A DNA stretch of 64,000 nt, from positions 249 through 64,248 of the forward strand of contig JAUSHX010000028.1 of NCBI GenBank assembly GCA_030648265.1. The letters run 5' to 3'. This document shows positions 9,437 through 60,850 of the stretch, one piece after another. This DNA is from a bacterium. GTDB taxonomy: Bacteria; Patescibacteriota; Minisyncoccia; Phycocordibacterales; UBA2100. The position numbers and the translations under genes are program-made. The notes under the pieces were generated by a model. It was not told the DNA's origin, did not search any database, and saw only the letters and a program-made list of their open reading frames with translations. The first letter of the stretch is position 1. Each line of letters begins with the position of its first letter.

Positions 9437-9627
9437 AAAATAAGGAGCAGAGCGACTATATTTTTCTAACCCCCCACCACTTTAGTATCCCACAACCTTA
9501 TCTTAGATTTGATACTATGTTGAGACGGTCTCGACGAAATCACAAGATTAGAATATGAGAACGGATACTAAAGTGGTGGGGGGTGTAAGATTTTCTAAGC
9601 TCGCTCCGCTCGCTAACAAAATCTAAC
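9437..9627 (+). repeat. composite intergenic palindromic element (copy E3), pilT–pilC spacer
   Basis: Outer gagcagagcgactatatttttctaac; arms ccccccaccactttagtatcc / ggatactaaagtggtgggggg enclosing a ~70-nt loop with an inner hairpin gagacggtctc; module gtaagattttctaagctcgctccgctcgctaacaaaatctaac then ATG. Confidence 0.85.
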
Positions 9628-20226: not shown

Positions 20227-20979
20227 GTGGAGAACCGATGCGCGGTTCTCTTTACGGGGTATAATCTCCCCATGGACGGAGGAGCTTCATTCAGCACGGT
20301 ATTTTCAAATATATTCTGGTTTATCGGCGAGGTCGCGTTCAAACTCGTGCCGGCTACTGTCGCCACGATTACCGGGGCTGAAAGTTCAGGCACTGGTCCG
20401 ATTTCGGCGGGATTTACTCCCATCACACAACCAGTGACCGCTGGCAGCATAGTTTCTTTTTTGGAGCAGATATCTTCACCGGAGGAATTCAGCTCTTTTG
20501 TTCACCGGTGGGATGTATTCGTCGCGATTTCAATGACCATCTGCCTCATTCTGGCAACGGGCATCATCTACTGTGTCATCCGCATCAGGCAGGTTAGGCA
20601 TCTTGAGCGCATGAAATTCCAGGCCGCGGAACATTCTGTCACTGCAGAAGATGTGCCGCGCACGCAATTGCGCTGGAGCAAAGTTCTTGAGCAGGTGAAT
20701 TCCGATTCCGAACAACACTGGCGTCTCGCCATCCTTGAAGCGGATATCATGCTGAATGAATTACTGGATCTTAGAGGCTACAAGGGAGACACCATGGCTG
20801 ATAAAATGAAACAAGTTGAGCGGGCGGATTTCAACTCAATTGATGAGGCGTGGGAGGCGCATAAAGTTCGTAATCTAATTGCGCACGAAGGTGCATCCTA
20901 CCAAATCAACAATCGCGAAGCCCGCCGGATTATCAGTTTGTACGAAAAAGTATTCAGGGAGTGCAAAGTCATTGAATAA
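20227..20979 (+). CDS. hypothetical membrane protein
   Basis: TM segments; GTG start at 20227 or ATG at 20272. Confidence 0.4.
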   Translation: MENRCAVLFTGYNLPMDGGASFSTVFSNIFWFIGEVAFKLVPATVATITGAESSGTGPISAGFTPITQPVTAGSIVSFLEQISSPEEFSSFVHRWDVFVAISMTICLILATGIIYCVIRIRQVRHLERMKFQAAEHSVTAEDVPRTQLRWSKVLEQVNSDSEQHWRLAILEADIMLNELLDLRGYKGDTMADKMKQVERADFNSIDEAWEAHKVRNLIAHEGASYQINNREARRIISLYEKVFRECKVIE

Positions 20980-21104
20980 TCTGCCTTGAGATTTTATCGC
21001 GTCGTTTTTCCCGCGCATAGCCACGTGACAAAATGACGCCAACGCAAGCGCTACTTTGTTTTTACGTGGTTGCGAGAGTTGGAAATTTGCAGTATATTCA
21101 CGCG

Positions 21105-21179
21105 AGCGGGGTGGAGCAGTAGTAGCTCGCAAGGCTCATAACCTTGAGGTCGCAGGTGCAATTCCTGTCCCCGCAACCA
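21105..21179 (+). tRNA. tRNA-Met(CAU), initiator-like (A1·A72 mismatch), CCA encoded
   Basis: AGCGGGGTGGAGCAG…GGCTCATAACC…TTCCTGTCCCCGCAACCA; close to E. coli tRNA-fMet. Confidence 0.8.
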
Positions 21180-21187
21180 CGTAAAAC

Positions 21188-21213
21188 GAAAACCCCGCCA
21201 TTGGCGGGGTTTT
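21188..21213 (+). terminator. rho-independent terminator hairpin aaaaccccgccattggcggggtttt
   Basis: GC stem followed by a T-tract, immediately after the tRNA. Confidence 0.7.
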
Positions 21214-21327
21214 CGTCACGTGGCTTGCGCCAGCAGGACATGTGTGAGCGAAGCGATTTACGTGGTTGAGCCGCGTGGTGAACGGAGTGAGCTTTACGCG
21301 GCAACTTATTCACGTAAGAATGTGTAC

Positions 21328-21591
21328 ATGTACCATGTTTACCTTTTAGAAAACCAAGACGACAAAAGTTGGTATATCGGCTACAGCGCCAATCTCAAAC
21401 AACGAATCGAGCGGCATCAAAAGGGTGATGGCGCTCGCACAACAAGTAGAAAGGAAAACTGGGATTTGATTTACTATGAAGCCTACAAAAACGAACAAGA
21501 TGCAAAAGGACGCGAGCGCTTCCTTAAAAGCGGGTCTGGCAGAAAGTTCCTAAAAAAACAGCTCGCACACTATTTGGTTAGTGAATTGTGA
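21328..21591 (+). CDS. free-standing GIY-YIG nuclease family protein (UPF0213/YhbQ-like, 87 aa)
   Basis: MYHVYLL…WYIGYSANLKQRIERHQKG…NWDLIYYEAY…RERFLK; the same family as the domain embedded in the pseudopilin at 13492. Confidence 0.75.
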   Translation: MYHVYLLENQDDKSWYIGYSANLKQRIERHQKGDGARTTSRKENWDLIYYEAYKNEQDAKGRERFLKSGSGRKFLKKQLAHYLVSEL

Positions 21592-21799
21592 CGCCATTTC
21601 CTGCCCCTGCAACACGGTTGTGACGCCAGGGAACCACATTCCCACAGGCGTCGAAAGTGCAAGAAGTCGGTACGGTACCGACTCCCATGGTCGGCTATAA
21701 AAGCGCATGAAACCACGCGAGTGGTTTTTGCGCATGCAATGTTCTCAACGTATTTTTGGTGCAATTCCAATTCTCGTGCAAATCAGTGATGTGTGTTGA

Positions 21800-21880
21800 A
21801 ATCGTGAAAATAGGCGTATTTCCTAAGTAATTCACGATTATGCTTGACTAAATCGTGAAAATCAATATACTTTAGCGGAC
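21800..21880 (+). promoter_or_regulatory. sigma70-like promoter (TTGACT-16-TATACT) embedded in palindromic operator-like repeats aaatcgtgaaaat / aattcacgatt / aaatcgtgaaaat upstream of fic
   Basis: Direct reading; inverted half-sites AATCGTGAA/TTCACGATT overlap the -35 and the spacer. Confidence 0.55.
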
Positions 21881-21898
21881 ACAGAGAACAAATCGTAT

Positions 21899-22771
21899 AT
21901 GACAAAGACTCCTCAAACACTCAGCCAGATTAAATTGCTCCGCGAGCGCTACTATAAGGCGCTGCCGGGCAAAGAGTTGCTCATCAAGATTATCAATGAG
22001 TCGGAAATTCCCGAGCACGTTTATAATTCAAACGCTATAGAAAATAGCACGCTCACCCTAGAGGAGACCGAAAAAATTCTCCTCCAGATTGATCTTGGCC
22101 GATATGTAAACGAGCGGGAAATTTTTGAAGCGAGGAATCTCGCGCGCGTTGTTGAATATATAGAAACGAAAGCAAAAGAAGCCGAGCTCTCTTTGTCCGG
22201 CATATGCCTGCTTCATAAAATGCTTATTGCCAATATCCGCGACGATGTCGCCGGCAGGTTCCGTCAGACTGGCGAGTGGGTGCGCGTCGGCGCACACATG
22301 GGAGCAGACCCGAAAGACATTGAGCATCTTCTGACAAAAATGCTCACGACATACCACGCAAGCTCGCACGAGCATATTGTGAAGCGCATTGCCTGTCTTC
22401 ATCTCGCCATTGAACACATTCATCCATTTGTTGACGGCAACGGGCGAATCGGCCGCGTCATTAACAACTATGCACTCATTAGGGAGGGGTACGTGCCGAT
22501 TAATATCGCGTTCGTGAATCGCGCCCGCTATTATGATGCGTTCAAAGAGTCTGATGCGAGCGGCGCAACCTCGATTATGGAAGAGGTCGTTGGCCGTGCG
22601 CTTGCCACGAGCTACCACAAGCGCTTGGCATATCTTGAAGGCAAACACATCATCACTCTTGCCGAGTATGGCAAACAAAAAAAACTTTCTCACTCAAATC
22701 TCATTAACAAAGCTCACCGCCAGACCATCCCTGCCTTTCTTGAGAAAGGTGTATGGAAAATCGGAGTGTAG
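21899..22771 (+). CDS. fic: Fic family protein (AMPylase/filamentation induced by cAMP)
   Basis: Fic motif HPFVDGNGRIGR. Confidence 0.9.
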   Translation: MTKTPQTLSQIKLLRERYYKALPGKELLIKIINESEIPEHVYNSNAIENSTLTLEETEKILLQIDLGRYVNEREIFEARNLARVVEYIETKAKEAELSLSGICLLHKMLIANIRDDVAGRFRQTGEWVRVGAHMGADPKDIEHLLTKMLTTYHASSHEHIVKRIACLHLAIEHIHPFVDGNGRIGRVINNYALIREGYVPINIAFVNRARYYDAFKESDASGATSIMEEVVGRALATSYHKRLAYLEGKHIITLAEYGKQKKLSHSNLINKAHRQTIPAFLEKGVWKIGV

Positions 22772-23014
22772 TATTCGTGTAGTAAATACCCTCATAAACC
22801 CTTGCGTTCATCATATAAGCTTGTAGTTAGCTGTTAATCTACAAGCACAAGGAATGACGCAACCCCCGCTGTGAGCCCCGAGGCGAGCAGAGCGAGCTTT
22901 TCGGGGTGAGTCCAGACCTGTTCCGACGCCCCTAGTTGATAAGAAAATCCTTTAAAATAGAGCACGTAATATCGGCAGTATCAAAAAATTAAGATTTGTG
23001 GGATGATTTGATTG

Positions 23015-23677
23015 ATGAAGATTAAAGCACTTCCTGCGCACGAGAGGCCGCGAGAAAAACTCATGGAGAAAGGTGCGGAGAATCTGACCGATGTTGAGTT
23101 ACTCGCAATTCTTTTGCGCACTGGTCGCGCAGGAAAGAGCGCGCTTGATATTGCGGAAAGTATTCTCACAAAGTACTCAAAGAAAAGAATATTAGATATT
23201 ACGTTAGCCGACCTTAGAGCGATCAAAGGCATTGATGCGGGCAAGGCATGCACCTTGCTTGCGGCATTTGAGTTCACAAAACGTGCGACGGGCGCGCATA
23301 AAAATGGAAGGCCAATTATACAAAGCACTGAAGACGCACTGGCACAACTGCATGATGTTCGCTCGCATAAAAAAGAGCATTTCGTTGCGCTTTACTTAAA
23401 TGCTCGCAACGAGCTTGTGCATCGCGAAGATATTTCAGTTGGAACAGTAAACGCAAGCATCGTACATCCGCGCGATGTATTTGCCCCTGCGCTTGAGCAT
23501 AATGCTACGGTCGTCATAGTCGCTCACAATCACCCCTCCGGCAGTCCTGACCCATCGCCAGAAGATTACGATGTTACTGCTCGCCTTAAAGACGCGGGGA
23601 AGCTTATCGGGGTCCAGCTTCTCTACCACCTTATCCTCACCAAAGACGGTCATGCGACGATTCATCAGAACCCGTAA
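23015..23677 (+). CDS. radC: RadC-like JAB/MPN domain protein (UPF0758)
   Basis: HNHPSGSPDPSPED JAMM-like motif and N-terminal HhH. Confidence 0.85.
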   Translation: MKIKALPAHERPREKLMEKGAENLTDVELLAILLRTGRAGKSALDIAESILTKYSKKRILDITLADLRAIKGIDAGKACTLLAAFEFTKRATGAHKNGRPIIQSTEDALAQLHDVRSHKKEHFVALYLNARNELVHREDISVGTVNASIVHPRDVFAPALEHNATVVIVAHNHPSGSPDPSPEDYDVTARLKDAGKLIGVQLLYHLILTKDGHATIHQNP

Positions 23678-23880
23678 TGCTAACTTTGTTTAGTTTCACT
23701 CCTCGAATGTGAAAAAACTAGGCTAGTTTGTTTAATGAGAAGCCCGCAATTATCACCCACTCAATTACTTAAGAATTGGTTAAATATCACTTAAGTTTAA
23801 GTAATCTGCATATTTGGGCTAGGAATTTCCACATGCAGTATTGACAAGTATTTCACATATGATACACTATTGTCATAGTT

Positions 23881-24501
23881 ATGAAAAGCGCTAAGAATCT
23901 ACTCGAGCAGCTCAAATCCTTGCCTTATTTCACCAAGGAGTCTGTTTTGCAGCTTAGCAGACCGTACGGCCTTGCAAAAACAACGGTTGACACATACATC
24001 AGCCGCTCCATGAAGCGCAAAGACATCCTTTCGCTAAGGAGGGGGCTATATGTATCTGCCGACTTTTACAACAAGAACAAGAGTGACACCTCGTATCTTT
24101 TCTTCCTTGCAAATGTTATCCGCAAGCCTTCCTATGTAAGTTCGTGGGCGGCGTTGCAGTACTATGGTCTTGCGACGGAAGCAATCCACACCATTACGTC
24201 CGTTACTTCCAAGGTGACGCGTACATACGTTACAAAGGCAGGCAACTTTGTCTACTCGTCGATAAAGGACGAACTATTTTCTGATTCAGTCTTGATAAAA
24301 GGAAAGTTCGACTTCTTTATCGCCACTCCGGCAAAGGCTTTGTTTGACCTGTTGTATGCTAAGACTCGTCAGTTTCAGGGAGTTGCGTTCGAGCATATTC
24401 CAAGACTCGTCGAAGAGCTACGCATCGATATTGATGAAATGGACAAATCAGAAAGAGAGAAATTTTATATGATGGTAAAGAAATATACGCACCATGGATA
24501 A
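23881..24501 (+). CDS. AbiEi-like antitoxin/transcriptional regulator (type IV TA/abortive infection)
   Basis: N-terminal wHTH similar to the AbiEi N-terminal domain; overlaps the downstream nucleotidyltransferase; strong TTGACA-17-TACACT promoter at 23841–23869. Confidence 0.55.
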   Translation: MKSAKNLLEQLKSLPYFTKESVLQLSRPYGLAKTTVDTYISRSMKRKDILSLRRGLYVSADFYNKNKSDTSYLFFLANVIRKPSYVSSWAALQYYGLATEAIHTITSVTSKVTRTYVTKAGNFVYSSIKDELFSDSVLIKGKFDFFIATPAKALFDLLYAKTRQFQGVAFEHIPRLVEELRIDIDEMDKSEREKFYMMVKKYTHHG

Positions 24502-25780
24502 TCAGATTCTCAGCGTGCTTAAGCAGAGACTCCAGGAAGTTGTCGCGTTGGGCGTTGCCGATGCCGAAACACAGCGCAATGCACTGAAAGAGGAGCTTCA
24601 GTACTATGTACTCGATTTTATCTATCACCACCAGGAATACAAAAGATGGGTGATGTACGGCGGTTCCGCGTTGCGTATTTGTCACGGCTTGGACCGAATG
24701 TCTGTCGACCTTGACTTCGAGGTTGAACATCCCATTACTGATGCATTTCTCACAGACCTACAGAATGAAATCGGAGAGCATTTTTCAAGCGCTTACAATG
24801 TTGGTTCGGAATCGTTGACGGTAAAAACCAATCATGGCCGTGGACTAACGCTCCGCTTTATCATCGGCGACGAACTGGGGTTTGGCCACACATCCAATCA
24901 GGTACATGTGAAGATAGACCTCAATAATTTCATGGCCCCCAAGACGGTTATCGAGCGCCGGCCAATCAACCACAACCAGCTTTCATTCGTTATCGTGACC
25001 TACAATATGTCAGCGCTCATGGCGAGCAAGATTGCCGCCATATTCTTGTGCGGTCGGCGGGGTATCGGAGAAGCGGTGTATGAAGAGAAAGGCAGAGACA
25101 TCTACGATTTACTCTGGTACATGGGCAAGAAGACTGTGCCTGACCTTGATTATCTGAACGCAAAGAAAGTTGAAGAAGCTAAAGACATCCGCACGCTTTT
25201 CACTAAGCTCACGATACAGATGAACAAAGTGAACAATGAAAATCTGAAGCAGGATCTCACGCCGCTTTTCACCAACCAGGGATTCATCACTCACTGGCTT
25301 GAAAACTGGCGCGAGAGTTTTTTCCACTTCATGGATGCTTATAAGATTCGTACCGTAACAAAGCTTGAAGGTGTGCGGGTGTTTGAGGATTTCAACTCCG
25401 ACGTATTTTCATTTGTGTACGCATACTCCACGGCAGAGGGAGATTCGGTGCGGGTTGCGTACCTCATCAGTGACTACTGGATGGACTTCAAGGACGGCGA
25501 TATCCCGACGGTCATAGATAACTTTGTAGACGAGCATATCGAATTTGCCGCAAATGGCGTATCAAGTCGACCCGCATCACAGAAAAAGCTCAAACAGTAC
25601 GCAACTATGTTTTATGCTAAAACCGAAGCGTATTTCAAAAAGACCGGACGCATCATGATAGGCGATACTATCGCGACAAAGCTCATCCGCATGACTGCCG
25701 ATAAACTGAACCAGAAAGAGCAGATTGTGCTCAACAAATCCGCCTTGTTGTCATGCGAGCTTGACGACCTGCTAAGATAG
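24494..25780 (+). CDS. AbiEii/AbiGii-family nucleotidyltransferase toxin with a long C-terminal extension (428 aa)
   Basis: YGGSALRICHGLDRMSVDLDFEV (GS…DxD NTase motif); the C-terminal ~130 aa are beyond the usual ~300-aa family length. Confidence 0.6.
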   Translation: MDNQILSVLKQRLQEVVALGVADAETQRNALKEELQYYVLDFIYHHQEYKRWVMYGGSALRICHGLDRMSVDLDFEVEHPITDAFLTDLQNEIGEHFSSAYNVGSESLTVKTNHGRGLTLRFIIGDELGFGHTSNQVHVKIDLNNFMAPKTVIERRPINHNQLSFVIVTYNMSALMASKIAAIFLCGRRGIGEAVYEEKGRDIYDLLWYMGKKTVPDLDYLNAKKVEEAKDIRTLFTKLTIQMNKVNNENLKQDLTPLFTNQGFITHWLENWRESFFHFMDAYKIRTVTKLEGVRVFEDFNSDVFSFVYAYSTAEGDSVRVAYLISDYWMDFKDGDIPTVIDNFVDEHIEFAANGVSSRPASQKKLKQYATMFYAKTEAYFKKTGRIMIGDTIATKLIRMTADKLNQKEQIVLNKSALLSCELDDLLR

Positions 25781-25868
25781 AAGGTATGCGCTACACACTT
25801 TTTGAACAACTGAAGAAGGTCTTGGAAAAGGACGAGCGATTGGTGGCCGAGGGGGAATTAAATCGAGC

Positions 25869-26005
25869 GACATTCTCACATTCTTGAGAATGTGAGAATG
25901 TCGTGGGAGGGGGAGAATCTATTCTAGTATTTTGCAAAATACTAGAATAGATTGGGAAGGGCGACGGGGCGGGTCATTTCAATGTTTTGCAAAACATTAG
26001 AATGA
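25869..26005. repeat. three long perfect or near-perfect palindromes (34, 38, 32 bp), each followed by a G-rich tract
   Basis: gacattctcacattcttgagaatgtgagaatgtc; aatctattctagtattttgcaaaatactagaatagatt; tcatttcaatgttttgcaaaacattagaatga. A related palindrome at 61853 acts as a terminator. Confidence 0.85.
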
Positions 26006-26049
26006 CGGGGGATAGAAAATAACGGGGGGGAGGGATAGGGAAAAAGGAA

Positions 26050-26420
26050 CATTATTACGCTTAATAATCGTTTGACACCTGTTTCTGTGCCTGTTGCCCG
26101 ACTACGCTGGAGCTCCGCTGGACCGTCTACAGGTGCCTATCATGACCGATAGGCCTGCGATTTGTATCCACGCTACGCGCGGACAAATCGGGAGCCTGAC
26201 ACCTGGTGTTTGTTTACGTCGAAACGGTACCGTCTACAGGCGAATTAACAAATTCGTGGCTCGGCCATAAACTTTGCTGACCGATAGACTCCATTTCGAC
26301 GCGATCTTTACTGGCGACGTAGAGCGAGTGTGATGCGGAAGCGCAGCTTCCGCATCACCGAGCCGAGGAGTCAGAAACCGTCAGCCGGTTTTCGCTTAAT
26401 AATCGCCTACCACCTGCTTC
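26050..26420. other. ~370-nt ORF-free, GC-rich, highly self-complementary region bounded by direct repeats (cgcttaataatcg at 26057 and 26396); candidate structured ncRNA or att/ori-like region
   Basis: Multiple hairpins (gatgcggaagcgcagcttccgcatc; cctatcatgaccgatagg; cacctg…caggtg); no ORF >60 aa on either strand across 25809–26478. Confidence 0.35.
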
Positions 26421-26478
26421 TTTTGAGGAGTACAATGAGCCCTAACGTTTTTGAGTACTGAATTTATAAACGCAGAAT

Positions 26479-27072
26479 ATGAATCAAATTGTCTACATCT
26501 TAATAAATGAGTCTATGCCTGAATTTGTGAAGATAGGCTTTACTCATGGTGATGTAAACGAAAGAATCAGGCAGTTAGATCGGACAGGCGTACCTCTTCC
26601 GTTTGAAGTTTACTACGCTGCAACAGTGGAAGACGCAGAAAAAGAAGAAAAATGGTTGCATTCTATTTTTGCTGATCGTCGGGCACGGGATAGCCGAGAA
26701 TTTTTCAAGATGAATCCTGAATATGCGGCGCTTGCATTAAAACGAGTAGAAATTAGAGAAACTAAGATTTATAGCGTACTGACCCCAGAACAGGAAAAGG
26801 AAGTCGATCAAGTAAAAGAAAGACGCTCAAGATTTCATTTCGCACAGTACGGAATTCCAGTCGGATCTAAACTTACTTTTACGAGAGATTCGGATATTGT
26901 TGCCGAAGTAGTAGAAAACGACAAAATAAAGATTGGAGACAAGGTTGATTTTCTATCAAATGTGGCCCGTGATTTATTGGGATACAGGCGAAGACCTCAA
27001 GGCACTTTGTATTTTGAATTTGAGGGCGAGATCTTAGATGATAGACGCAGAAGAATGGAGGAAGAAGATTAG
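26479..27072 (+). CDS. T5orf172 (GIY-YIG-like) domain protein with DUF4357-like C-terminus
   Basis: IVYILINESMPEFVKIGFT…ERIRQL…EFFKMNPEYA matches the T5orf172 signature. Confidence 0.7.
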   Translation: MNQIVYILINESMPEFVKIGFTHGDVNERIRQLDRTGVPLPFEVYYAATVEDAEKEEKWLHSIFADRRARDSREFFKMNPEYAALALKRVEIRETKIYSVLTPEQEKEVDQVKERRSRFHFAQYGIPVGSKLTFTRDSDIVAEVVENDKIKIGDKVDFLSNVARDLLGYRRRPQGTLYFEFEGEILDDRRRRMEEED

Positions 27073-27173
27073 ACAGGAGGCGGCGGCGCGGCAGGTTTCC
27101 CGGAAATGAGGATTTGTGGGATGATGTTCTGGCGATGGTAAACAATGGACTGGATGTTGCAACAAGGATTCAG

Positions 27174-28013
27174 TTATCTGTAATAATTCAGTAGGACTTC
27201 GAGGGTCAGGTCTACGCCTCTTGTGCGGAGTTCTTTAATTACTTTTCCAGTGTAAAGCTTTTTAAGCATTTCACTTTTTGACGCATCTTCCGCATTGTGT
27301 ATTTTTCTGTGACAATTTGGACATAAAGGCACAATGTTTACTGGAACATCAATACTGTGCGGGAAGTCTTCCTGATTAGAGATGGGTATTATATGATGCA
27401 TTTCAACGTATTGCCCCTCGAGTGTGGGGCTAAAAAAGGTCTTGTGCGATGGATCATAAGTACAGAGGTTGCCAGATAAAATAAGTGCGAGTTTAGCTAT
27501 CCTTGGGTTGCCCCGATACCCAGTAGATGAATTTTTTGTCTGTTTTCTAGGCTTTGCGATTGGTCCCTCCGGCAATGGTTCAATCGGATCCGCGATGCGC
27601 ACTGCAGTCTGGAACATCTCATCAGTTGTGTCTATGACGGACTCCCCCCTTTCTATTGCGGAGATGATTCGCTGAGCCTCCTCAATGGTGACTGTGTCTG
27701 ACGCTGCAAGACCGGAGAGGTCTTTCAGCCTGTATTCGTGACCAGTGCCGTTAGGAGATTCGAATACACGATGTGCCAATCTGCCATCCCCCTGGTTAAG
27801 CTCACTCCGATATTGCGCTGTCCAGTTACTGCCGTGATGAAACTCGTGCCTCCAAAGTTCTGAAAAGGGGTTGGATCTGAAATTCTCGATAGGTAAGTAT
27901 TTCCCAGGTTTTGCGATGGACAATGCCGAAAGAATTATTGCAAATGAGAGGCGGGTGCTATCTTTATATTGGAAAACCTCGGCTAACTCACTGGCGGTCA
28001 TTTCAGAAATCAT
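27174..28013 (-). CDS. HNH endonuclease (candidate restriction endonuclease), divergent from the methyltransferase fusion
   Basis: C-terminal HNH motif EMHHIIPIS…NIVPLCPNCHRKIHN; the ORF track starts at TTG 28055, the first ATG is 28013. Confidence 0.65.
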   Translation of the reverse strand: MISEMTASELAEVFQYKDSTRLSFAIILSALSIAKPGKYLPIENFRSNPFSELWRHEFHHGSNWTAQYRSELNQGDGRLAHRVFESPNGTGHEYRLKDLSGLAASDTVTIEEAQRIISAIERGESVIDTTDEMFQTAVRIADPIEPLPEGPIAKPRKQTKNSSTGYRGNPRIAKLALILSGNLCTYDPSHKTFFSPTLEGQYVEMHHIIPISNQEDFPHSIDVPVNIVPLCPNCHRKIHNAEDASKSEMLKKLYTGKVIKELRTRGVDLTLEVLLNYYR

Positions 28014-28130
28014 AGCTGTATAGTTATACACATCCGAAAATAAGTAAAGCACCAATCTTAGTGCATAATATGCATGTTACTGCTCGTATTGGTTGATTAA
28101 TTTACCACCTACACTCAATTGGTCGAATTC

Positions 28131-31031
28131 ATGGTCTATATATCAACGAAAAAAGCCTCAGATATTTTGGGAGTATCTCCAACAACCATGAGACGATATG
28201 CGGATGCTGGGAGTTTGCCCGTTGTTCGCTTGTCGCAATCGAGGCACCGCCGTTTTGCCGTATCTGACGTTAGTAAGTTGTTGACGGACCTTTCAGTAAG
28301 AGGCGATGAGAATGGGTTCCACAAGAAGAATAGTCCATCTTTCGCCAAACCGCATCCTTCTCACTATCTATTACATAAATATTGGGGCAGAAAGGCCCAT
28401 AATATTGTCGAGAACTATGTTAAGCGATACACCCGAAAAGGAGATGTGGTACTTGATCCGTTCATGGGGAGTGGCGTTGTATTAATTGAATCGGCGAAAG
28501 CACATCGTAAGGCTATTGGAATCGACATTAACCCTTTGTCGAAGTTCATTGTTGACGGTACTACGCAGAAAGTTAACCCCGAGGAACTCGCCGAGGTCTT
28601 TGGAAACATTCTGTCTCAGTTGGAGGCAGCATTTGAATACTACAATATGACAAAATGTTTGCACTGTAGACTCGATTCAACCATAGAAACTACGGTATGG
28701 AATGAGACGGAGCCAGCAGTCATCAGATTCCGCTGCCCCGTTCACGGCGTCGGTGTTAAAGTCCCGTCCCAAAGTGATAAGAGGGTTATTAGAGAGGCAC
28801 GCACTCTGTTTGAAGATCTTGAGGCGGCACACGAATTACAATACCCCAAGGATGAGATTTTAAAATATGTAAAAAGAAGTGGAGTATCGACTATAGATGC
28901 GCTCTTTACATCCCGGGCGTTAGTGCAGTTGTCCCACCTGCTTATCCTAATAGAAAAAGTGGAAGTCCAGTCTGTCCGCGACACTTTAAAATTAATATTT
29001 AGTTCAATGTTACCGAACGTCTCGAAGATGATACCTGGCGATATTGAAAAAGGAACGTATAAGTCTGGTTGGGTCATCAGCAAATTTTGGGTTCCCAAAA
29101 TACATACGGAACGCTCCGTGTTGCATTGCTTGAAACTCCGATTCCAATCTGTTTTCAAAGGGAAAAAAGAGTTAAAAGATTTAGACGAGAGCTTAATTCA
29201 ATCGCACATAGCAGATAGTAAGAAACTGGCTCTCGATGATAATTCAGTCGATTATATTTTTACTGACCCGCCTTATGGAGAGAGTATTGCATACCTCGCC
29301 TTGAGTCATTTTTACAATGCCTGGTTTAAAATGCTACCTGAATATTCTAATGAGATTATTATCGATCCATATAGAAAGATTTCGAAAGAAGATTTTGCAA
29401 GAAATATCCAAAAATGTTTTGGAGAGATGTATAGGGTTCTTAAACCAAATAGGTTTCTATCCTTCACCTTTCACAATAGGAATTTGGATGTGTGGAAGAC
29501 TATCCTAGAGGCATGCCTAAAGTCGGGATTTACACTTAAGGACATTGTCTTTCAGCCACAGGCAGTTTCGTCGGGAACACAGGGTATCAACAGAAAGAAT
29601 ACCTTATACGGGGATTTCATCTATACATTTCAAAAACCTAAGAAAAAGAAGATTCATGAGGGGTTCAAATACTTCGATAACGCCTACGGTTTTCTGGTTA
29701 ATACAATAAATTCTCTATTAGTATCAAAAGGGCAGGTTTCTACGGCTGAATTGTATGAGCATATAATACCTATTATTGTGAAGAATCACGCATATCTGGA
29801 TAAGGATGGGAAAATTATCGATTTGGAGACATTGATCAGTAATAATTTTGAGTATAAGAAGACAGAGAAAGGTGATCGGTGGCGTGCCCTTTCCAGAGTT
29901 GCCAACACATCACGTTTCACGGTCGTGGACTTATTTGCGGGGGCGGGCGGTTTTTCTGAGGGATTTAAACACGCGGGGTTTGACATTGCTGTTGCGGTTG
30001 AAAATGACTCACGTCATAGCGAAACGTATGTGCACAATCACCCAAATACTAGATTGATAGTGGACGGAGTTGAAAACATCTCAACATCAAAGAGGCGGGG
30101 GAGGTTCTCAATTTCAGAGTTTCTAAGGGAGAATCATAAATCTTGCAACATCATCATTGGAGGTCCTCCATGTCAGGGATTCAGCATGGCAGGTTCGCGA
30201 ATTAGAAGAAAAAGAAGATTCTTATCGGATAGACGAAATACCCTGTTTCTTGAATACGTAAATTTGGTTGAAGATTTAAATCCAGAAGTATTTATACTGG
30301 AAAATGTACCGGGAATACTCAACTATGATAACGGAGCCGTAAAAGAAGAGATCATATCGAAATTCGCAGAGCTTGGATATGATGTGCATGCTGAAATCTT
30401 AGACGCAAGTAAGTATGGTATTCCTCAATCTAGAAAGCGGGCTTTTTTCATTGGGAACAGATTGGGCATTCCGTCGAAAACTCTATTTCCGAATTCACAA
30501 TGTGATAACGAAACTGTGTCAGTATGGGATGCGATTAGTGACCTTCCTCAAATTATGAGCGGTGAAGGAGGTCAGGTTATAAAAAACAATATGATGGTAC
30601 CTCAGTCACATTATCAGCAAATAATGCGATTGGAAAACGAGGACTGTATTTTCAATCATGAAGCGCCAACGCATAGTCAGGCCACTCTAGATGTTATGAA
30701 ACTCATAAAACCAGGTAAGGGATTGAAGGATCTACCTAAGGAATTTCACACAAGATCGGTTCATAGTGGTGCATATGGTCGAATGGAAAAGGATAGGCCA
30801 GCGTTCACCTTAACGACTCGTCTAAACACTCCATCGGTTGGAAGAATTACGCACCCAGTACTGCATAGAACGATCACGCCTCGAGAGGCTGCCAGGTTAC
30901 AGAGTTTCTCTGATTCGTATCGATTCTTCGGTGACGTGACAACTCAGGGAATTCAAATTGGCAACGCAGTACCTCCACTCCTGGCTGAATTAATTGCCAA
31001 AGAGATTATGAAAAAAGCTTTTGATCGGTAG
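28131..31031 (+). CDS. fusion protein: MerR/excisionase-like HTH + amino (N4/N6) DNA methyltransferase + C5-cytosine DNA methyltransferase
   Basis: HTH (ASDILGVSPTTMRRYAD); amino-MTase motif I VLDPFMGSGVV and motif IV IFTDPPYG; C5-MTase motifs FAGAGGFSEGF (I), GGPPCQGFS (IV), ENV (VI), QSRKRAFFIG (VIII), GNAV (X). Confidence 0.8.
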   Translation: MVYISTKKASDILGVSPTTMRRYADAGSLPVVRLSQSRHRRFAVSDVSKLLTDLSVRGDENGFHKKNSPSFAKPHPSHYLLHKYWGRKAHNIVENYVKRYTRKGDVVLDPFMGSGVVLIESAKAHRKAIGIDINPLSKFIVDGTTQKVNPEELAEVFGNILSQLEAAFEYYNMTKCLHCRLDSTIETTVWNETEPAVIRFRCPVHGVGVKVPSQSDKRVIREARTLFEDLEAAHELQYPKDEILKYVKRSGVSTIDALFTSRALVQLSHLLILIEKVEVQSVRDTLKLIFSSMLPNVSKMIPGDIEKGTYKSGWVISKFWVPKIHTERSVLHCLKLRFQSVFKGKKELKDLDESLIQSHIADSKKLALDDNSVDYIFTDPPYGESIAYLALSHFYNAWFKMLPEYSNEIIIDPYRKISKEDFARNIQKCFGEMYRVLKPNRFLSFTFHNRNLDVWKTILEACLKSGFTLKDIVFQPQAVSSGTQGINRKNTLYGDFIYTFQKPKKKKIHEGFKYFDNAYGFLVNTINSLLVSKGQVSTAELYEHIIPIIVKNHAYLDKDGKIIDLETLISNNFEYKKTEKGDRWRALSRVANTSRFTVVDLFAGAGGFSEGFKHAGFDIAVAVENDSRHSETYVHNHPNTRLIVDGVENISTSKRRGRFSISEFLRENHKSCNIIIGGPPCQGFSMAGSRIRRKRRFLSDRRNTLFLEYVNLVEDLNPEVFILENVPGILNYDNGAVKEEIISKFAELGYDVHAEILDASKYGIPQSRKRAFFIGNRLGIPSKTLFPNSQCDNETVSVWDAISDLPQIMSGEGGQVIKNNMMVPQSHYQQIMRLENEDCIFNHEAPTHSQATLDVMKLIKPGKGLKDLPKEFHTRSVHSGAYGRMEKDRPAFTLTTRLNTPSVGRITHPVLHRTITPREAARLQSFSDSYRFFGDVTTQGIQIGNAVPPLLAELIAKEIMKKAFDR

Positions 31032-31401
31032 TATGGGGAATAGGGTGTCAGGTGCCATTTTTGCGTTAGAATTGGAACATGCCCGACGAAACCCAGGCCC
31101 CTGCGACCGAGCCAGAAACACTGAATGAGCCAGTGGCTAGTAGCCAGCAGCCCGTAGCAATACCAGAAACAGACGTATCAAGTCCTGCGGGCGATATTTC
31201 AAGCACCGAAACCCCGCCTGCGCCCCAAAACGGCCCTGGGGACATCGCGACCCCGGTTCCTGTTAAAGATGCAAATTCGGAGCCGAATTTGGCTGAGAGC
31301 AGTGGCGAAAATACGGAAAAACAGCCTGAAATCGGAGCCGCGGGAGCGGCCGCTACTGCGGTTGCTCCCGCGGCTTCATCCCCCTCGTTTATCGGCGATT
31401 T

Positions 31402-32310
31402 TTGAAAGATAACGGTCTCGCTGTTGGCCAACCAGGAAGATTTGAATTAACAAAAGCGGGCGTGTTGTTGTTTGGTAAAAATCCTTCCATTGCACTTAAA
31501 AATAAGTGTGGAATTAAAATCTCTCATTATTATGGAACAAAACCGAGCCATACCGGAAAACCAAATTTCGTTACTCGTCCGTTTACGGTTGAAGGGCCTT
31601 TGTTGAAGCAGATTGAGCAGGCAATTGAGTACTTCAGGAATATTGTAAAGAATTCGCCACCAAAACTTAGCGGTGCGTCTTTTAACCCTACTTTTTTGGT
31701 TCCGGAATGGGCATTCCAAGAAGCCATAACAAATGCGGTTATCCACAGAAACTATTTTGTCCAAGACGATATACAAGTCAGGTTTTTTGACGATCGCGTT
31801 GAAATCGAAAGCCCCGGAACATATCCAGGCCATATTACTGTTGAAAATATCAGGACCGAACGGTTTGCGAGAAATCCGCTGATTTTGCGAACTCTCAATC
31901 GTTTTCAAATTGCCCCTAACTTGGATATTGGCGAGGGCGTAGATCGCATGTTTAAAGTTATGAAAGAGCAAAACCTGTATGAACCACTTTTCTTTCCGCC
32001 CACGATACGTCCCAATTCTGTTTTATTGTTTTTGCTTAATATTCAGAAAGTTGAGTATTGGGACACTGTCGGTAAGTATTTAGATAAAAATTATCGCATC
32101 TCTAACAAAAGAGCGCGCGAGATAACCAGTGTGCAAGATATTTTGAAAATGTCTCGACTGTTACATAATTGGGTTGAAAAAGGATTATTGGAGAAAATGG
32201 GCAAAGCCAAGAAGGACTGCTATTACCGTAAACCAGGACAGGAAATCCCCAAGGGTTTATTTTCAATGGGGGGTGATAATAAAACCGGCAAAGGGAATTT
32301 ACACCCTTAA
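31402..32310 (+). pseudogene. N-terminally truncated Schlafen/AlbA_2–HATPase_c_4 family protein (divergent AAA, RecG-C-like) fragment; TTG start only
   Basis: Retains …LTKAGVLLFGKNP… (end of the AlbA_2 domain) and the HATPase_c_4-like region; no ATG; preceded by a low-complexity Pro/Ala/Thr ORF in another frame. Confidence 0.45.
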
Positions 32311-32364
32311 AATAGGCATATTTTGGTAGGCCTTATTCTCACAGACACATTAAAGGAAGAAATT

Positions 32365-34158
32365 ATGTCAACGCCGCAATCTGAAAATTCATATATTGCC
32401 AATGAAATCTTGCCTCTCTTGGCAAGTGGTTTTGGCTATCCGATTCACGATTCTGTCAGGGTAAAAATCAACGATGTCCCGATTTTCCGGCCGAGTGGTG
32501 GTCGAGCAGGCACTATGGATATTGTCTACTATCACAATGGTGAGCCAGTACTACTCGTAGAAGCTAAGAGAAAACACAAATCGCATGATGCGGCATTGCA
32601 AGAGGCCCTTAAATATTTACTTAATTTTCCCGTTAAACGTGAAGAGTTCGCTCCATCCGGCATACCCCCGAAATTTTTGGCAACAACTGTCGGCAAAGAA
32701 ATAAAGTTTTATAAATGGTCGTACGATTATTCTCATCAGATACCGGATTTTTTGACAGAAGAAGTTGAGATTCTGTCGTTTAATAGACTTCTTGAGTATT
32801 ACGGTTTAAACGAAAAGTATCAGGCACGTATTTTGGATGTGAGAGGATTTAAGACAGATTTTTTTGACGAATTAGTAGCAATTTTTAAAACAGATGCGAA
32901 GGAGGAAAGAATCACCGCAGATATTATCAAGAAGGTTTCACTGCAGATTCTTAATTTTTTGGCTTATGGAGATAAGTTTGCCGGTCAGCTGCCCTATACC
33001 GGTTTGTCTATACAGGGACAAAAGGCAGTGCGTGACTTGTTTGACCGCTTTAATCTAACATCCTCGCTTGGACCGGAAGCCGCCAGAGAGTTCCGCAGAG
33101 CAATTCTACGCTCCTTTCAGGGTGGCGGATTTAACCAGTATCTTACAGAACAGTGCGTGATTGCTTTCATGGTCGGTCTAGTAGGGGGTTTTAGACCGGA
33201 AACCACGGTGCTTGATTTCGAGTGCGGAAGCGGTGGATTCTTAGCAGCCGCTGTTGAGCTTGGCGTCGGTTTGGAAAATATACGCGGCATAGATATCGAG
33301 GAATTACCTTGTATTGTTGCCAAGACCTATTTAGCTCTATATTTCAAGAAAACGGGTGAATGGATTGATGCTCTACCAGTGAAAAAAGATAACGGCCTGC
33401 TCGACCAAGGGAGTAATTGGGATGTTGTAATCGGCAATCCAGCTGGTGGGAATAAATACGAGCACGGAGGTTTAGTAAAAATTGGAAGTCACCTTGACCG
33501 AGACTTGGATAGAAACGGTCGGCTGGACGACAATCTTTCCGAGTATAACCTTTCCATTCAGCAGGCCGTGATGAGTACAAAGATTGGCGGAAAAATCTGC
33601 CTGATTTTGCCGGAAGGATTTTTTTCGAACTCACAGGATGAGTTTCTGCGCAAATTTGTGGCCAAGCATTGTAAAGTGTTGGCGATTGTTAGTCTGCCGC
33701 GCGGTGTCTTCAAGAAAGGGACCTCAACGCGTCGACTAAGGGGTGGTGCGCAAACCGCCTCTATGAAAATGTCTATTTTTTGTGCAGAGAAAGTGAAAGA
33801 GATTGATAAGGAAGATCTGATTGGCACCGACGATTCTTCTACCGTGAGTTATCCAGTATTTCTTGTGAGCGTAAACGAACCAACATCAACAAGCGGGTCG
33901 GTTTGTGACTGGCTTGAACCGCGCCTCGTTGCCGTATTAGAGCAGTGGGAAGTATGGCGCAGCAGCGAGCATCTTGAAGCAAAGCCGATTACCAAAATCG
34001 CCGCATTAGTAAGTGAAAAGAGAAAGAAACATTTGCCCGCCGTGCCGTTACCTTTCGCACAAAGTCCAGATGCCGATACCAAGTCGGCGCGCAAACGAGC
34101 ACAGCCGAAGACGCAGACCAAGGTCAACAAAGATTTGGACGATATTTTCTCGCAATAA
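32365..34158 (+). CDS. PD-(D/E)xK nuclease domain (HsdR-N-like) fused to an N6-adenine DNA methyltransferase (Type IIG/IIL-like R-M candidate)
   Basis: MDIVYYHNGEPVLLVEAKRK (D…EAK); MTase motif I LDFECGSGGFL and motif IV VVIGNPAGG; SD GGAAG before ATG 32365. Confidence 0.6.
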   Translation: MSTPQSENSYIANEILPLLASGFGYPIHDSVRVKINDVPIFRPSGGRAGTMDIVYYHNGEPVLLVEAKRKHKSHDAALQEALKYLLNFPVKREEFAPSGIPPKFLATTVGKEIKFYKWSYDYSHQIPDFLTEEVEILSFNRLLEYYGLNEKYQARILDVRGFKTDFFDELVAIFKTDAKEERITADIIKKVSLQILNFLAYGDKFAGQLPYTGLSIQGQKAVRDLFDRFNLTSSLGPEAAREFRRAILRSFQGGGFNQYLTEQCVIAFMVGLVGGFRPETTVLDFECGSGGFLAAAVELGVGLENIRGIDIEELPCIVAKTYLALYFKKTGEWIDALPVKKDNGLLDQGSNWDVVIGNPAGGNKYEHGGLVKIGSHLDRDLDRNGRLDDNLSEYNLSIQQAVMSTKIGGKICLILPEGFFSNSQDEFLRKFVAKHCKVLAIVSLPRGVFKKGTSTRRLRGGAQTASMKMSIFCAEKVKEIDKEDLIGTDDSSTVSYPVFLVSVNEPTSTSGSVCDWLEPRLVAVLEQWEVWRSSEHLEAKPITKIAALVSEKRKKHLPAVPLPFAQSPDADTKSARKRAQPKTQTKVNKDLDDIFSQ

Positions 34159-34672
34159 ATTGCAGGTACTGTCATGGACGAGGAACTCTTCGAACTCGCA
34201 AAAGATAACGACCTAACGCTTGATGAGGCCCAGGAGGTTCAGGATTTGGCTGATGAGACGGGTCTGGATCTCAACGAAGCATTGGAAATTTGGCAGGCAC
34301 AATAATAGCAGCCCTGAAACCAGCTGTTGGTAACTCGCTTCGCAACTCGCTAATACTAAGCTAGGGTGCTCAACGATAGCCAAAAGTGCTATCATGTTCT
34401 GTACACCACCAATATCGGCTCGAAAGAGCGTCGACCTAAACTATTCGCAAGAGTGGCATGGTCGAGAAGACCCAATCACGATACTGAACCCGCCTGTTTG
34501 GGCTGTCCCCACTTCTTGCGAATTTCATCTTGACCATGTATACTGCTACGCATAAACACCTTGTCGTAGCTTCGGTTACGGTAAGTCAACGAAAGGGGGC
34601 TTAGGCCCCCTTTTGTTATGTATGGTATTCTTGAATCCATGGTATTCTGAACTTCAGATTCACACTTTCTAT

Positions 34673-35173
34673 ATGGCAACGAAAATAAACCAAGCAAAGT
34701 ATCGCAACGCCATCCTGTTTTTTGCGAGTAGGATTCAAAATGGCACGCTCGGCAAGTTGAAGCTAATGAAGCTTCTCTACTATTTCGATTTCGATTTCTT
34801 CGAGAAATATGGGCGCTCGGTTACAGGTGATAAATACCTACGTTTCGAGAATGGTCCCGTGCCACGTATGGCAGAGAAGATTATAAAGCAGATGGATGGC
34901 AAAGAAATCAAGATTTCGAGGCGAAAGGTAGCTGATGGCTATAAAGACCAGATGCATATAGAAGCTCTTGTGGCCTTTGATATTAGTGTTTTCGAAAAAG
35001 AAGAAATCCTTCTTCTCGAGGAACTTGCGTCCAAATGGGAACGCTTTAGCGGTGCCGAAATGAAAAGTGCGACTCATGGTGAAGCACCATGGATTGCCAC
35101 CGAAGCGAATGGCGTCATCGATTACAATCTCGCCTATTATCGAGACACATACGGCGAAATGGCAAAGGTCTAG
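34673..35173 (+). CDS. Panacea/DUF4065 (SocA-like) domain antitoxin candidate
   Basis: GKLKLMKLLYYFDFDFF…TGDKYLRFENGPVP is a typical DUF4065 signature. Confidence 0.65.
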   Translation: MATKINQAKYRNAILFFASRIQNGTLGKLKLMKLLYYFDFDFFEKYGRSVTGDKYLRFENGPVPRMAEKIIKQMDGKEIKISRRKVADGYKDQMHIEALVAFDISVFEKEEILLLEELASKWERFSGAEMKSATHGEAPWIATEANGVIDYNLAYYRDTYGEMAKV

Positions 35174-35184
35174 CGGAGAACCTC

Positions 35185-35523
35185 ATGGATCTTTGTCGTC
35201 ACGAAGATATCGAGAAAGATTTTCATGCGCTGAAACGCTTTGCTGCGCCACAAGCTTCACTTGAAGCGTGGGAGCGACTCTTTTCACTCAAAGGTCTCAA
35301 AGAAACACCGGGAATTGATGCGTTTCCTGGTTTTGGGGGTGCGAAGATATATAAAGGTCGCGTGGTTCCTCTCAAAGAGAATGTTGGTAAGTCAAAGGGT
35401 TACCGGGTGATTTTTGAATTGCAGGAAGAACAGCGCTATCGCATCGTAGTTTTCTCACGACATGGGATTTATCATGACGAACAAGATTTGATAAATCTTG
35501 TCAGGATCAGACTCAAGCGTTGA
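35185..35523 (+). CDS. RelE/ParE-superfamily toxin candidate (112 aa)
   Basis: C-terminal KGYRVIFEL…YRIVVFSRHGIYHD pattern; 12 nt downstream of the Panacea gene; SD GGAG. Confidence 0.5.
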   Translation: MDLCRHEDIEKDFHALKRFAAPQASLEAWERLFSLKGLKETPGIDAFPGFGGAKIYKGRVVPLKENVGKSKGYRVIFELQEEQRYRIVVFSRHGIYHDEQDLINLVRIRLKR

Positions 35524-35690
35524 TTTCCGGTACGGTACCGCTCGGCCTCTTCGGCCTTCGAAATGCGCCGAAAGTCGTCGAATACTCTTTGAACTGACCC
35601 ATACCGACAGGCATCGCTCGGGCGTACTATAGAGAGGTGAAAGAACCTTTGGTTTGCTTACTGGGTGGGGTAGGGTACCGCCAAGGGCAA

Positions 35691-35721
35691 CAGAAAAACC
35701 GCCCGTATGGCGGTTTTTCTG
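35691..35721. terminator. terminator-like hairpin cagaaaaaccgcccgtatggcggtttttctg
   Basis: Perfect stem with T/A tracts on both sides; lies between the island and ilvD. Confidence 0.6.
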
Positions 35722-35772
35722 TTGGAGGATTGAACTTATTATCCAACGCGGGTATACTTCCACCACGTATAT

Positions 35773-37787: not shown

Positions 37788-37901
37788 TAAAGAAGTTGTT
37801 ATGAGCGAAGCGAATTACAAATTCTTTACCCAGCACCTTTCGCGAAAGGTGCTGGGTGTAAGATTTACTAAACTCATTATCATTCGTTAAGAAAATCTAA
37901 C
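37788..37901 (+). repeat. composite intergenic palindromic element (copy E10), dsrE-like–ilvC spacer
   Basis: gagcgaagcgaattacaaattctttac + cccagcacctttcgcgaaaggtgctggg + tgtaagatttactaaactcattatcattcgttaagaaaatctaac + ATG. Confidence 0.85.
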
Positions 37902-59549: not shown

Positions 59550-59701
59550 AAATGCGTACGGGGAAGTGTAATGGACAATAGCAATTTGTTTTCGTCGAAA
59601 ATCTCCTGATTTTCGACGCGATTTTTGCTCCTTGGATTACCAAGGAAAAAATCGTTTGCAAAATGGCTTTAATACGATATAGTCTTGGGCACAAACCAGA
59701 T

Positions 59702-59809
59702 ATGTCGCAGGATCAACTTTTTAAACTCGCGTGTGCAAAGTGCGGCTGTATTAATGCCGACGTTACAGTCGGCACCCCGACCGCAGAGCGCGTCGGGGCT
59801 ATTGGCTAA
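59702..59809 (+). CDS. 35-codon upstream ORF duplicating the first 18 codons of rpmG (synonymously diverged), then hairpin-rich unique tail
   Basis: MSQDQLFKLACAKCGCIN… versus rpmG MSQDQLFKLACTKCGRIN…; ~75% nt, ~90% aa identity. Confidence 0.4.
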   Translation: MSQDQLFKLACAKCGCINADVTVGTPTAERVGAIG

Positions 59810-59819
59810 CTTTTATCGT

Positions 59820-60846: not shown

Positions 60847-60850
60847 CAAT

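Follow-up and report, generated by a model that had tools for sequence, protein, structure and literature searches.

How did some 14 kb of defence and toxin-antitoxin (TA) genes come to lie between tRNA-Met and ilvD in a member of the Patescibacteriota? The genes occupy the middle of a 64,000-nucleotide stretch of contig JAUSHX010000028.1 (hereafter the window), which comes from an uncultured, Parcubacteria-like (Kaiserbacteria-like) groundwater bacterium; the closest relatives of its ilvD are found in Patescibacteria metagenome-assembled genomes, either unclassified or Kaiserbacteria-like. An earlier note, made from the letters of the window, had proposed one ~14-kb accessory/defence island next to tRNA-Met, delimited by two identical 13-mers and devoid of an integrase. 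We built a gene map from Pfam, PADLOC, NCBIfam and PHROGs with tRNA calls from ARAGORN, and compared it with 200 fetched loci (L001 to L200, 2.5 Mb).

Our analyses suggest that window 21.2-35.7 kb is probably a strain-variable accessory hotspot directly 3' of tRNA-Met, built by successive insertions and cassette replacements and not by one event. Its joints, its presence/absence variants and its foreign composition can all be read off directly. The slot lies between housekeeping genes on the left (ligA-gatC-gatA) and ilvD-DsrE-ilvC on the right, and island DNA begins 20-500 bp past tRNA-Met. Several flank genes find their best match in the relative L004 (ilvD 80%, ilvC 90%, the 250-aa open reading frame (ORF) 82%, gatA 71%), whose tRNA-Met is 98.6% identical to that of the window. 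There the order is gatC-gatA-unk232-tRNA-Met(9605-9677)-ilvD(10001), with only ~325 bp from tRNA-Met to ilvD, so that the comparison proposed in the earlier note does yield a near-empty site. This interval holds scars: ~25 nt resembling the 3' end of a GIY-YIG nuclease gene, then a displaced tRNA 3' end, then the terminator that follows the intact tRNA in the window. At least some DNA has thus been lost from L004. Two other relatives (L082, L088) retain gatA-unk-tRNA-Met with a different continuation; because continuations differ among relatives, the position after tRNA-Met is a synteny break point.

Composition, which the note had proposed to check, sets the same region apart. Against a flank GC content of 0.498 +/- 0.017, the island reaches a minimum of 0.414 (z = -5.1) across 21-35 kb and its tetranucleotide distance rises to z = +8.6, making 21.6-35.7 kb atypical by both measures. 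Two compositional sub-blocks can be distinguished, with GC ~0.46 at 21-27 kb and 0.41-0.44 at 27-34 kb. Close homologues of the island genes were not found in the relatives' loci, methylase homologues fetched on purpose excepted, and AbiEi, T5orf172 and the 970-aa methylase have only ~35%-identity matches, in unrelated loci.

As in a defence island, several anti-phage and TA systems are clustered here according to PADLOC and Pfam. The PADLOC matches comprise SoFic/PDC-S04, AbiEi plus AbiEii, PDC-S57, type II methylases, a MAD2-like methylase and HNH, and the AbiEi and AbiEii ORFs adjoin with an 8-nt overlap, the antitoxin/nucleotidyltransferase gene arrangement of AbiE abortive-infection (type IV TA) systems. 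The gene list of the earlier note was mostly right, Fic, RadC, AbiEi, AbiEii, T5orf172, Panacea and HSDR_N+N6_Mtase all being recovered by Pfam or PADLOC, and its accessory/defence island in a variable slot 3' of tRNA-Met is borne out by gene content, empty site and composition. Its 'HNH + methyltransferase (MTase) fusion' was a misreading: HNH is a separate minus-strand ORF, and the 970-aa protein combines HTH_17 with two methylase domains.

That the island is not one unit emerges from the Fic module (see the table below for coordinates). Homologues 96% identical to the Fic protein occur in many groundwater contigs, and in all 14 metagenome contigs with a Fic homologue that we compared, the segment 21681/21711-22881 is 93-96% identical at the nucleotide level while both sides vary. 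More distant Fic homologues (77%) show no link to tRNA-Met, and exact look-ups of the Fic and 144-aa proteins found nothing. The contigs fall into three types on the left side, which differ in a GIY-YIG gene, in A', a displaced degenerate copy of the tRNA-Met 3' end, and in E, a segment of tRNA-trailer type. Type A (six contigs, e.g. L177, L183, L186) has a 19-nt tRNA-Met 3' fragment without an adjacent intact tRNA, then the terminator, GIY-YIG, a 20-nt tRNA 3' copy and the Fic module, and is without window 21614-21710. In type B (L178, L179, L180, L184), unk250, tRNA-Met and the terminator are followed directly by the Fic module, with no GIY-YIG, A' or 13-mer. Type C (L181, L185), from which GIY-YIG is likewise missing, reads tRNA-Met, a different trailer, A', E, TTGGTACGGTACCG and the Fic module.

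The right side of the module is equally variable. It leads into a type I restriction-modification cluster in L177, L178 and L187 and into an HTH_38 gene in L181, while in L185, L186 and L180 the Fic tail is joined directly to the homologue of 34325-34445, followed by a pair made of a 62-aa protein and ParE, in place of the window's Panacea cassette, and then by the homologue of 35588-35692. Given these L185- and L177-type alternatives to the right of Fic, the genome-specific DNA spans about 22943-34325. This 11.4-kb cargo block has no nucleotide match in the 200 loci except at 32377-33957, the match there being to methylase homologues that had been fetched on purpose (L198-L200). For the last gene of the block, the nearest homologues reach 78% identity at most and belong to another system, of four genes (SNF2 helicase, methylase, S-like protein, methylase). 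One ~14-kb element delimited by the 13-mers is therefore not what we see. Instead, the locus is a nested mosaic, with a 1.85-kb unit in L185 and a window-specific 11.4-kb block: a genuine, well-delimited but composite defence island of known kind.

Features of the tRNA-Met/ilvD locus in window coordinates, from left to right; an empty cell means that no entry is given.
Feature	Position	Strand	Remarks
ligA, gatC, gatA	16362-20144		left flank
conserved 250-aa ORF (unk250)	20227-20979		between gatA and tRNA-Met
inverted copy of tRNA 3' end and trailer	21055-21074	+	upstream of tRNA; inverted repeat I5
tRNA-Met (CAT), intron-free	21105-21179	+	hotspot anchor; ARAGORN; Rfam tRNA 58 bits
extended terminator hairpin beginning in tRNA ACCA end, then second inverted tRNA-end copy (21254-21268)	21176-21268	+	inverted repeats I15, I22
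GIY-YIG nuclease gene, 86 aa	21331-21591	+	Pfam GIY-YIG 2.5e-17
A', displaced degenerate direct copy of tRNA-Met 3' end, CATTTCCTGCCCCTGCAAC	21595-21613	+	directly past GIY-YIG stop codon
E, tRNA-trailer-type segment; CGGTTGTGACGCCAGG(G)AACCA also stands directly 3' of the intron-bearing tRNA-Met of L092	21614-21667	+	
left 13-mer, CGGTACGGTACCG	21668-21680		
Fic module: promoter-like site, Fic ORF 21899-22771, tail	21681-22942	+	Pfam Fic 3.6e-21; PADLOC SoFic/PDC-S04
window-specific cargo block, 11.4 kb	22943-34325	+	GC lowest here
RadC	23012-23677		
AbiEi	23881-24501		PADLOC 2e-34
AbiEii	24494-25780		PADLOC 2.3e-30; Pfam AbiEii 1.2e-20
palindrome-rich non-coding gap, ~700 bp	25781-26478		near GC shift between two cargo sub-blocks
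T5orf172/MUG113	26479-27072		PADLOC PDC-S57 2e-60
HNH, 293 aa	27174-28055	-	
970-aa HTH_17 + N4/N6-MTase + C5-MTase	28119-31031		
unclassified 108-aa ORF	31079-31405		
Schlafen/HATPase_c_4-like fragment, 302 aa	31402-32310		matches C-terminal two-thirds of phrog_12156
HSDR_N + N6_Mtase	32323-34158		
conserved non-coding spacer (anchor) before TA slot	34326-34445	+	77-86% identical to L180, L181, L185, L186
TA cassette	34613-35523	+	
Panacea-domain antitoxin	34613-35173		Pfam SocA_Panacea 2e-17
unclassified putative toxin ORF, 113-144 aa	35089 or 35182 to 35523		
conserved non-coding element, ~165 nt, ending GCAACA	35526-35692	+	80% identical to L180, L185, L186; repeat family D2
right 13-mer, CGGTACGGTACCG	35528-35540		4 nt past toxin stop codon, start of conserved non-coding element
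GCAACA junction and tRNA-type trailer/terminator (predicted outer right joint)	35687-35729	+	GCAACA at 35687-35692
ilvD	35773-37467	+	Pfam ILVD_EDD 3e-134; conserved right flank, outside island
DsrE, ilvC	downstream of ilvD		right flank

What, then, are the 13-mers? The pair described in the earlier note exists, and the window has exactly two copies. The sequence is a palindrome around a central G (CGGTAC-G-GTACCG), hence its minus strand matches with one mismatch. No exact copy occurs in the first 161 loci fetched, related or unrelated, so it is no common motif. Its 9-mer core, ACGGTACCG, has three copies in the window (21672, 26224, 35532) against 0.18 expected, all within non-coding island DNA; the third lies in the large non-coding gap of the cargo block as ACGGTACCGT (26224-26233), and a degenerate copy of the whole 13-mer is found at 35668-35680. 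The chance of ~0.002 per window attached to the pair in the earlier note is wrong: a count of maximal exact direct repeats of at least 13 nt over the window gives 109 pairs. It is by position that the pair is unlikely, even if there was a choice among several candidate boundaries: a 13-mer common to the intergenic regions at the two borders (307 and 249 bp) has a chance of 0.0007 by shuffling, 0.0011 analytically and 0.003 from random window pairs of real sequence.

Comparison with relatives places the repeats on joints. Homology of the type B contigs to the window begins immediately past the left 13-mer, at 21681, and L181 and L185 carry a 12/13 version of that repeat at the same place. The position homologous to the right 13-mer reads GGTACCATACCG in L185, L186 and L180, where it follows a different TA cassette; in L185, 12/13 and 11/13 versions thereby flank a ~1.85-kb Fic...TA unit. 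In the distant relative L092, CAGTACAGTACCGCTTGGC matches the right 13-mer plus CTCGGC, and the tRNA-Met trailer gives an unbroken alignment to a fusion of window 21596-21680 with 35541 onward (score 86, 0/3000 shuffles). Its left flank (GTC) is common to the left 13-mer and its right flank (CTYGGC...TTCG.AAA.G.CCGAAAG) to the right 13-mer, a pattern that, judged from the alignment, is that of an unoccupied site. No more than ~10 nt separate the ends of the variable TA cassettes from the right 13-mer, and in independent variants both copies stand where conserved and variable DNA meet. The pair is thus a genuine joint marker of an inner, older unit and not the boundary of one 14-kb element. Whether the 13-mer is also a recombination site we regard as evenly balanced, a binding or structural motif being the main alternative.

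The left end has a history of its own. The note's inverted copies of the tRNA-Met 3' end are both real: 21055-21074 against 21172-21191 (20 nt, 90% complementary) and, downstream, 21174-21188 against 21254-21268 (15 nt, 93%). The upstream copy is not conserved in L004 or L178. The downstream one belongs to a conserved structure, namely the terminator hairpin, for which RNAalifold on six loci gave 25 pairs, 12/25 of them with compensatory changes (for example, CCACGT/ACGTGG vs ATCGAGT/ACTCGAT); as 21254-21268 is able to pair with that tRNA end too, the RNA upstream of GIY-YIG may adopt alternative structures. Rfam found no match besides the tRNA over 20-37 kb. The tRNA itself is intron-free in the window, L004 and L178. 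In several relatives, a group I intron sits in the tRNA-Met anticodon loop (RF00028, 82 bits in L162), and ARAGORN overlooks or mis-calls such genes; the intron-bearing or otherwise relevant loci are L162 9502-9789, L088 2003-2298, L092 ~4300-4676, L165 and L179/L180.

Between the tRNA and the left 13-mer lie two features that the earlier note overlooked, GIY-YIG (inside its coordinate range but not in its list) and A'. Across Parcubacteria, GIY-YIG homologues keep 78-89% identity, against 59-71% for gatA and 53-63% for ligA, and the order tRNA-Met, terminator, GIY-YIG is syntenic in the Kaiserbacteria loci L162 and L165-170, which weakens the idea of a recent insertion unique to this genome. 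In type A contigs, 19-20-nt copies of the tRNA-Met 3' end stand on both sides of the gene and no intact tRNA adjoins (e.g. L183); the gene region is at 150-660 in L183 and at 5880-6300 in L171. The protein has a weak match to the group-I-intron endonuclease family TIGR01453. Homologues at 40-48% identity adjoin tRNA genes in distant Patescibacteria (L100, L106, L121), in L106 behind a partial duplicate of the 5' half of the neighbouring tRNA-Asp, and the 86-aa gene may be a minimal tRNA-targeting cassette. A full-text literature search for GIY-YIG with tRNA in the candidate phyla radiation (CPR) returned nothing on the subject, its match concerning haloarchaeal viruses and DPANN symbionts.

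A' is 17/19 identical to tRNA positions 55-73 (shuffle p ~0.0015) and recurs at the same place in L004, L185/L181 and L177/L186. It is followed by CGGTTGTGACGCCAGGGAACCA, the same sequence that stands directly 3' of the intron-bearing tRNA-Met in L092. A scan of viral contigs gave 0 matches to the E trailer.

At the right end, the TA slot is followed by the conserved non-coding element, which starts with the 13-mer and contains the degenerate copy, the latter able to pair with the right half of the former: in the minimum free energy (MFE) fold, this half pairs with 35674-35680, with one compensatory change in L185. The fold has z = -2.55, and the element has no Rfam match. From GCAACA onward, the window aligns with the trailer 3' of the intact tRNA-Met in L185 (score 60, 0/2000 shuffles), and L185 has the L004-type trailer attached to this element at GCAACA (score 172). 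On these alignments GCAACA appears to be the outer joint, at tRNA-end sequence. We dropped 35600-35705 as a decayed tRNA half (p ~0.3), and rejected GCAAC as a universal crossover pentamer, since 5-6-mers are too frequent and trailers necessarily begin after the tRNA end. The sole public contig with an exact match to ilvD, L001 (Logan SRR13727527, 2.2 kb), breaks at window 35630, ~90 nt right of the right 13-mer, which fits an assembly break at a strain-variable junction. In the TA slot itself, the 'RelE' label that the earlier note gave to the 144-aa ORF found no support in sequence searches: there is no Pfam/HMM, PHROG or PDB sequence match, and the sole RelE/HigB hint is a GKSKGYRVIF motif recognised by eye.

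Two parts of the cargo block deserve a closer description. The palindrome-rich gap includes perfect palindromes at 25868-25903, 25916-25953 and 25973-26006, a 32-nt direct repeat (26055/26390, 81%) and the third core copy, as ACGGTACCG(T) at 26224; a 91% copy of the palindrome 25870-25901 is present at 61860-61891. The HATPase_c_4 protein covers only positions 193-479 of the 485 in phrog_12156 and its ORF overlaps the 108-aa ORF at the latter's stop codon, which may point to a Schlafen/AlbA_2-type gene that has been split or truncated.

The absence of an integrase or transposase gene, remarked on in the earlier note, was confirmed: no island ORF has a Pfam match to an integrase, recombinase or transposase, and no recombinase was found in six-frame fragments of the island gaps or in ten further recombinase-sized ORFs of the window. 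Terminal inverted repeats are absent from the ends of both the 13-mer-bounded unit (p = 0.21) and the 11.4-kb block (p = 0.48), so that the region has neither of the hallmarks of a transposon or insertion sequence, inverted termini and a transposase. Nor did we find a cognate integrase, or an element with a matching attP, for the island repeats.

The history of the hotspot can probably be ordered into steps. A ~430-bp cassette, terminator plus GIY-YIG, would have come to lie between the tRNA 3' end and the displaced copy A'. A Fic...TA unit would then have entered the old tRNA trailer at the palindromic 13-mer, which now stands on both sides, and the 11.4-kb cargo block would have entered behind the Fic module, within that unit; the TA slot appears to be exchangeable in its own right. 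The joints (tRNA 3'-end copies and 13-mer) may be sites of site-specific recombinases, which would have to act in trans because none is encoded in the island, and the present array would then be a non-autonomous or fossil island resembling cis-mobilisable elements (CIMEs). Cargo might also be turned over by homologous recombination between the anchors, that is, the Fic module, 34326-34445 and 35526-35692, and TA modules beside the joints, together with the defence cargo, would favour retention.

Several observations weigh against this stepwise history. The right-hand 'tRNA copy' is not statistically tRNA-like (p ~0.3), the joint there being drawn solely from trailer homology, and a GTTGRTAA repeat flanking the cargo block is not significant. 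Being older than the divergence of the window and L185 lineages, the 13-mer repeats are no fresh target duplication. Since GIY-YIG is syntenic in several Kaiserbacteria, the first step may be ancient or no insertion at all. No integrase, excisionase or transposase was detected anywhere tested in the 64 kb, and site-specific recombination is accordingly read from scars only. Finally, the relatives are metagenome contigs in which chimeric assembly is possible, but type A is seen in six contigs and type B in four.

Could another history account for the same joints? A single ~13.9-kb integrative element (21681-35527), with the 13-mer as the att core or target duplication of a site-specific recombinase and with the integrase gene lost later, would explain the exact direct repeats just outside the first and last genes, with their positional chance of about 0.001-0.003, as well as the L092 trailer that resembles an unoccupied site and the type B homology that begins exactly past the left 13-mer. 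However, the same repeats flank the 1.85-kb unit of L185, which shares only the Fic module and anchors with the window, and the 11.4-kb cargo is a separate later block of two compositional sub-blocks; with no terminal inverted repeats and no integrase remnant in any gap, we consider a single insertion improbable. An ancestral gene order from which relatives such as L004 have deleted the region would account for the L004 scars (displaced tRNA 3' end, ~25 nt GIY-YIG-like), but it is highly improbable in view of the foreign composition, the lack of close island-gene homologues in related loci (purpose-fetched methylases aside), the near-identical Fic modules that precede different cargo and a defence/TA content typical of horizontally moving DNA. 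Some real, if minor, weight must be given to the possibility that the 13-mers are no recombination sites at all, their position at the island ends being incidental, and that they are instead palindromic protein-binding or structural motifs of conserved non-coding anchors; they could serve as arm-type or operator sites, or 35526-35692 could be a small structured RNA whose closing stem they provide. The perfect palindrome around the central G, the 9-mer core copy at 26224 and degenerate copy at 35668-35680, the pairing of the right 13-mer half with 35674-35680 in the MFE fold and its one compensatory change in L185, the 109 repeat pairs in the window, and two close GTACCG-containing copies with nothing between them in L092 are all consistent with such a role. 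Against it, both copies stand at conserved/variable boundaries in independent variants and their flanks fit duplication at insertion (left with L092 left, right with L092 right), while the fold z is only -2.55 and the covariation comes from just two distinct sequences.

A different engine is conceivable, namely homing-type exchange in which GIY-YIG (possibly also T5orf172 and HNH) cuts the tRNA-Met 3' region or the palindromic joints and repair copies cassettes in, with no need of an integrase. Conservation of GIY-YIG (78-89%) far exceeds that of the core genes next to it, near-identical contigs differ in whether they carry it, and 19-20-nt tRNA-Met 3' copies flank it even where no intact tRNA is adjacent (L183); its distant homologues stand beside tRNA genes (L100, L106, L121), its TIGR01453 match points the same way, if weakly, and the target tRNA bears a group I intron in relatives. 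Yet the 86-aa protein consists of the catalytic domain only, with no DNA-binding domain, homologous repair normally creates no target duplications, and the Kaiserbacteria synteny is compatible with a conserved host gene, so homing as the driver seems to us quite unlikely. We are scarcely more inclined to the broader notion, still rather doubtful, of a Parcubacteria tRNA-Met hotspot serviced without an integrase, where the ~430-bp GIY-YIG cassette would be an unrecognised mobile unit targeting the tRNA 3' end and the 13-mer joints would be nuclease or recombination sites for swapping defence and TA cassettes; the evidence for such a nuclease-linked cassette system centred on GIY-YIG is circumstantial.

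The island is not the only irregular part of the window. A second, larger GIY-YIG ORF (300 aa, 13441-14343) lies within a type IV pilus gene cluster, surrounded by direct repeats of 39, 27, 21 and 20 nt at 13759/14436/15119 and 14345/15016 (region 13759-15140). Nearby, at 11046-12590, three tandem ~160-aa ORFs with exact repeats of 47, 35 and 23 nt at their 5' ends are probably paralogous pilin-like genes. Another atypical stretch (59000-64000; GC ~0.45, z ~-2.9; tetranucleotide z +3.4), from around tRNA-Trp (60775-60847), may be another tRNA-linked variable region. Further repeats include an identical 21-mer, AAGGTGCTGGGTGTAAGATTT, just upstream of ligA (16307-16327) and of ilvC (37846-37866), and a 39-nt repeat at 46586/47165.

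Among known systems, the CIMEs and accretion at one att site described for ICESt1 and ICESt3 of Streptococcus offer one parallel: tandem segments are separated by att-like repeats, and segments that lack recombination genes could be moved by the integrase of a related element. Unlike those cases, no helper element or integrase was identified here, and the att role of the repeats is putative. Free-standing GIY-YIG homing endonuclease genes, such as the Seg genes of phage T4 and the relatives of I-TevI, share with the present gene its small size, high conservation and presence/absence polymorphism, and its place beside a putative target, a tRNA that has a group I intron in relatives. They differ in that the gene studied here encodes 86 aa without a DNA-binding domain, has short target-like direct repeats and shows family-wide synteny.

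Closer in outline are tRNA-linked islands in which successive integrations push older elements inward and leave scattered partial tRNAs (10.1101/2020.12.28.424599). The Prochlorococcus islands and tycheposons of that study resemble the present locus in being tRNA-adjacent, with internal partial tRNA 3' copies, older elements inward, degenerate remnants and variable cargo (10.1101/2020.12.28.424599). In contrast, we found no tyrosine recombinase or fragment of one, the host belongs to the CPR and the cargo is of the defence/TA kind, and one joint is a palindromic 13-mer rather than a tRNA fragment. In E. coli, 18/41 defence hotspots are tRNA loci, and many occupied hotspot sites show no identifiable means of mobilization (PMC10121019). 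E. coli hotspot #37 and the P. aeruginosa hotspots are likewise slots between core genes that hold different defence systems in each strain and no detectable mobile element (PMC10121019); the E. coli examples often keep an integrase, however, and in the present locus conserved non-coding anchors and a conserved Fic gene frame the variable slots.

CPR bacteria have tiny genomes with few recognisable mobile elements, and the gain and exchange of defence genes in this group is consequently poorly documented. The locus described here is a base-resolved, tRNA-linked, strain-variable defence hotspot in the CPR, complete with conserved non-coding anchors and with several cargoes that replace one another in near-identical surroundings. 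No principle beyond those known from the islands of E. coli, Pseudomonas and Prochlorococcus emerges from it; only if the integrase-less joints, the 13-mer and the GIY-YIG cassette, prove to be an autonomous mechanism would that verdict change.

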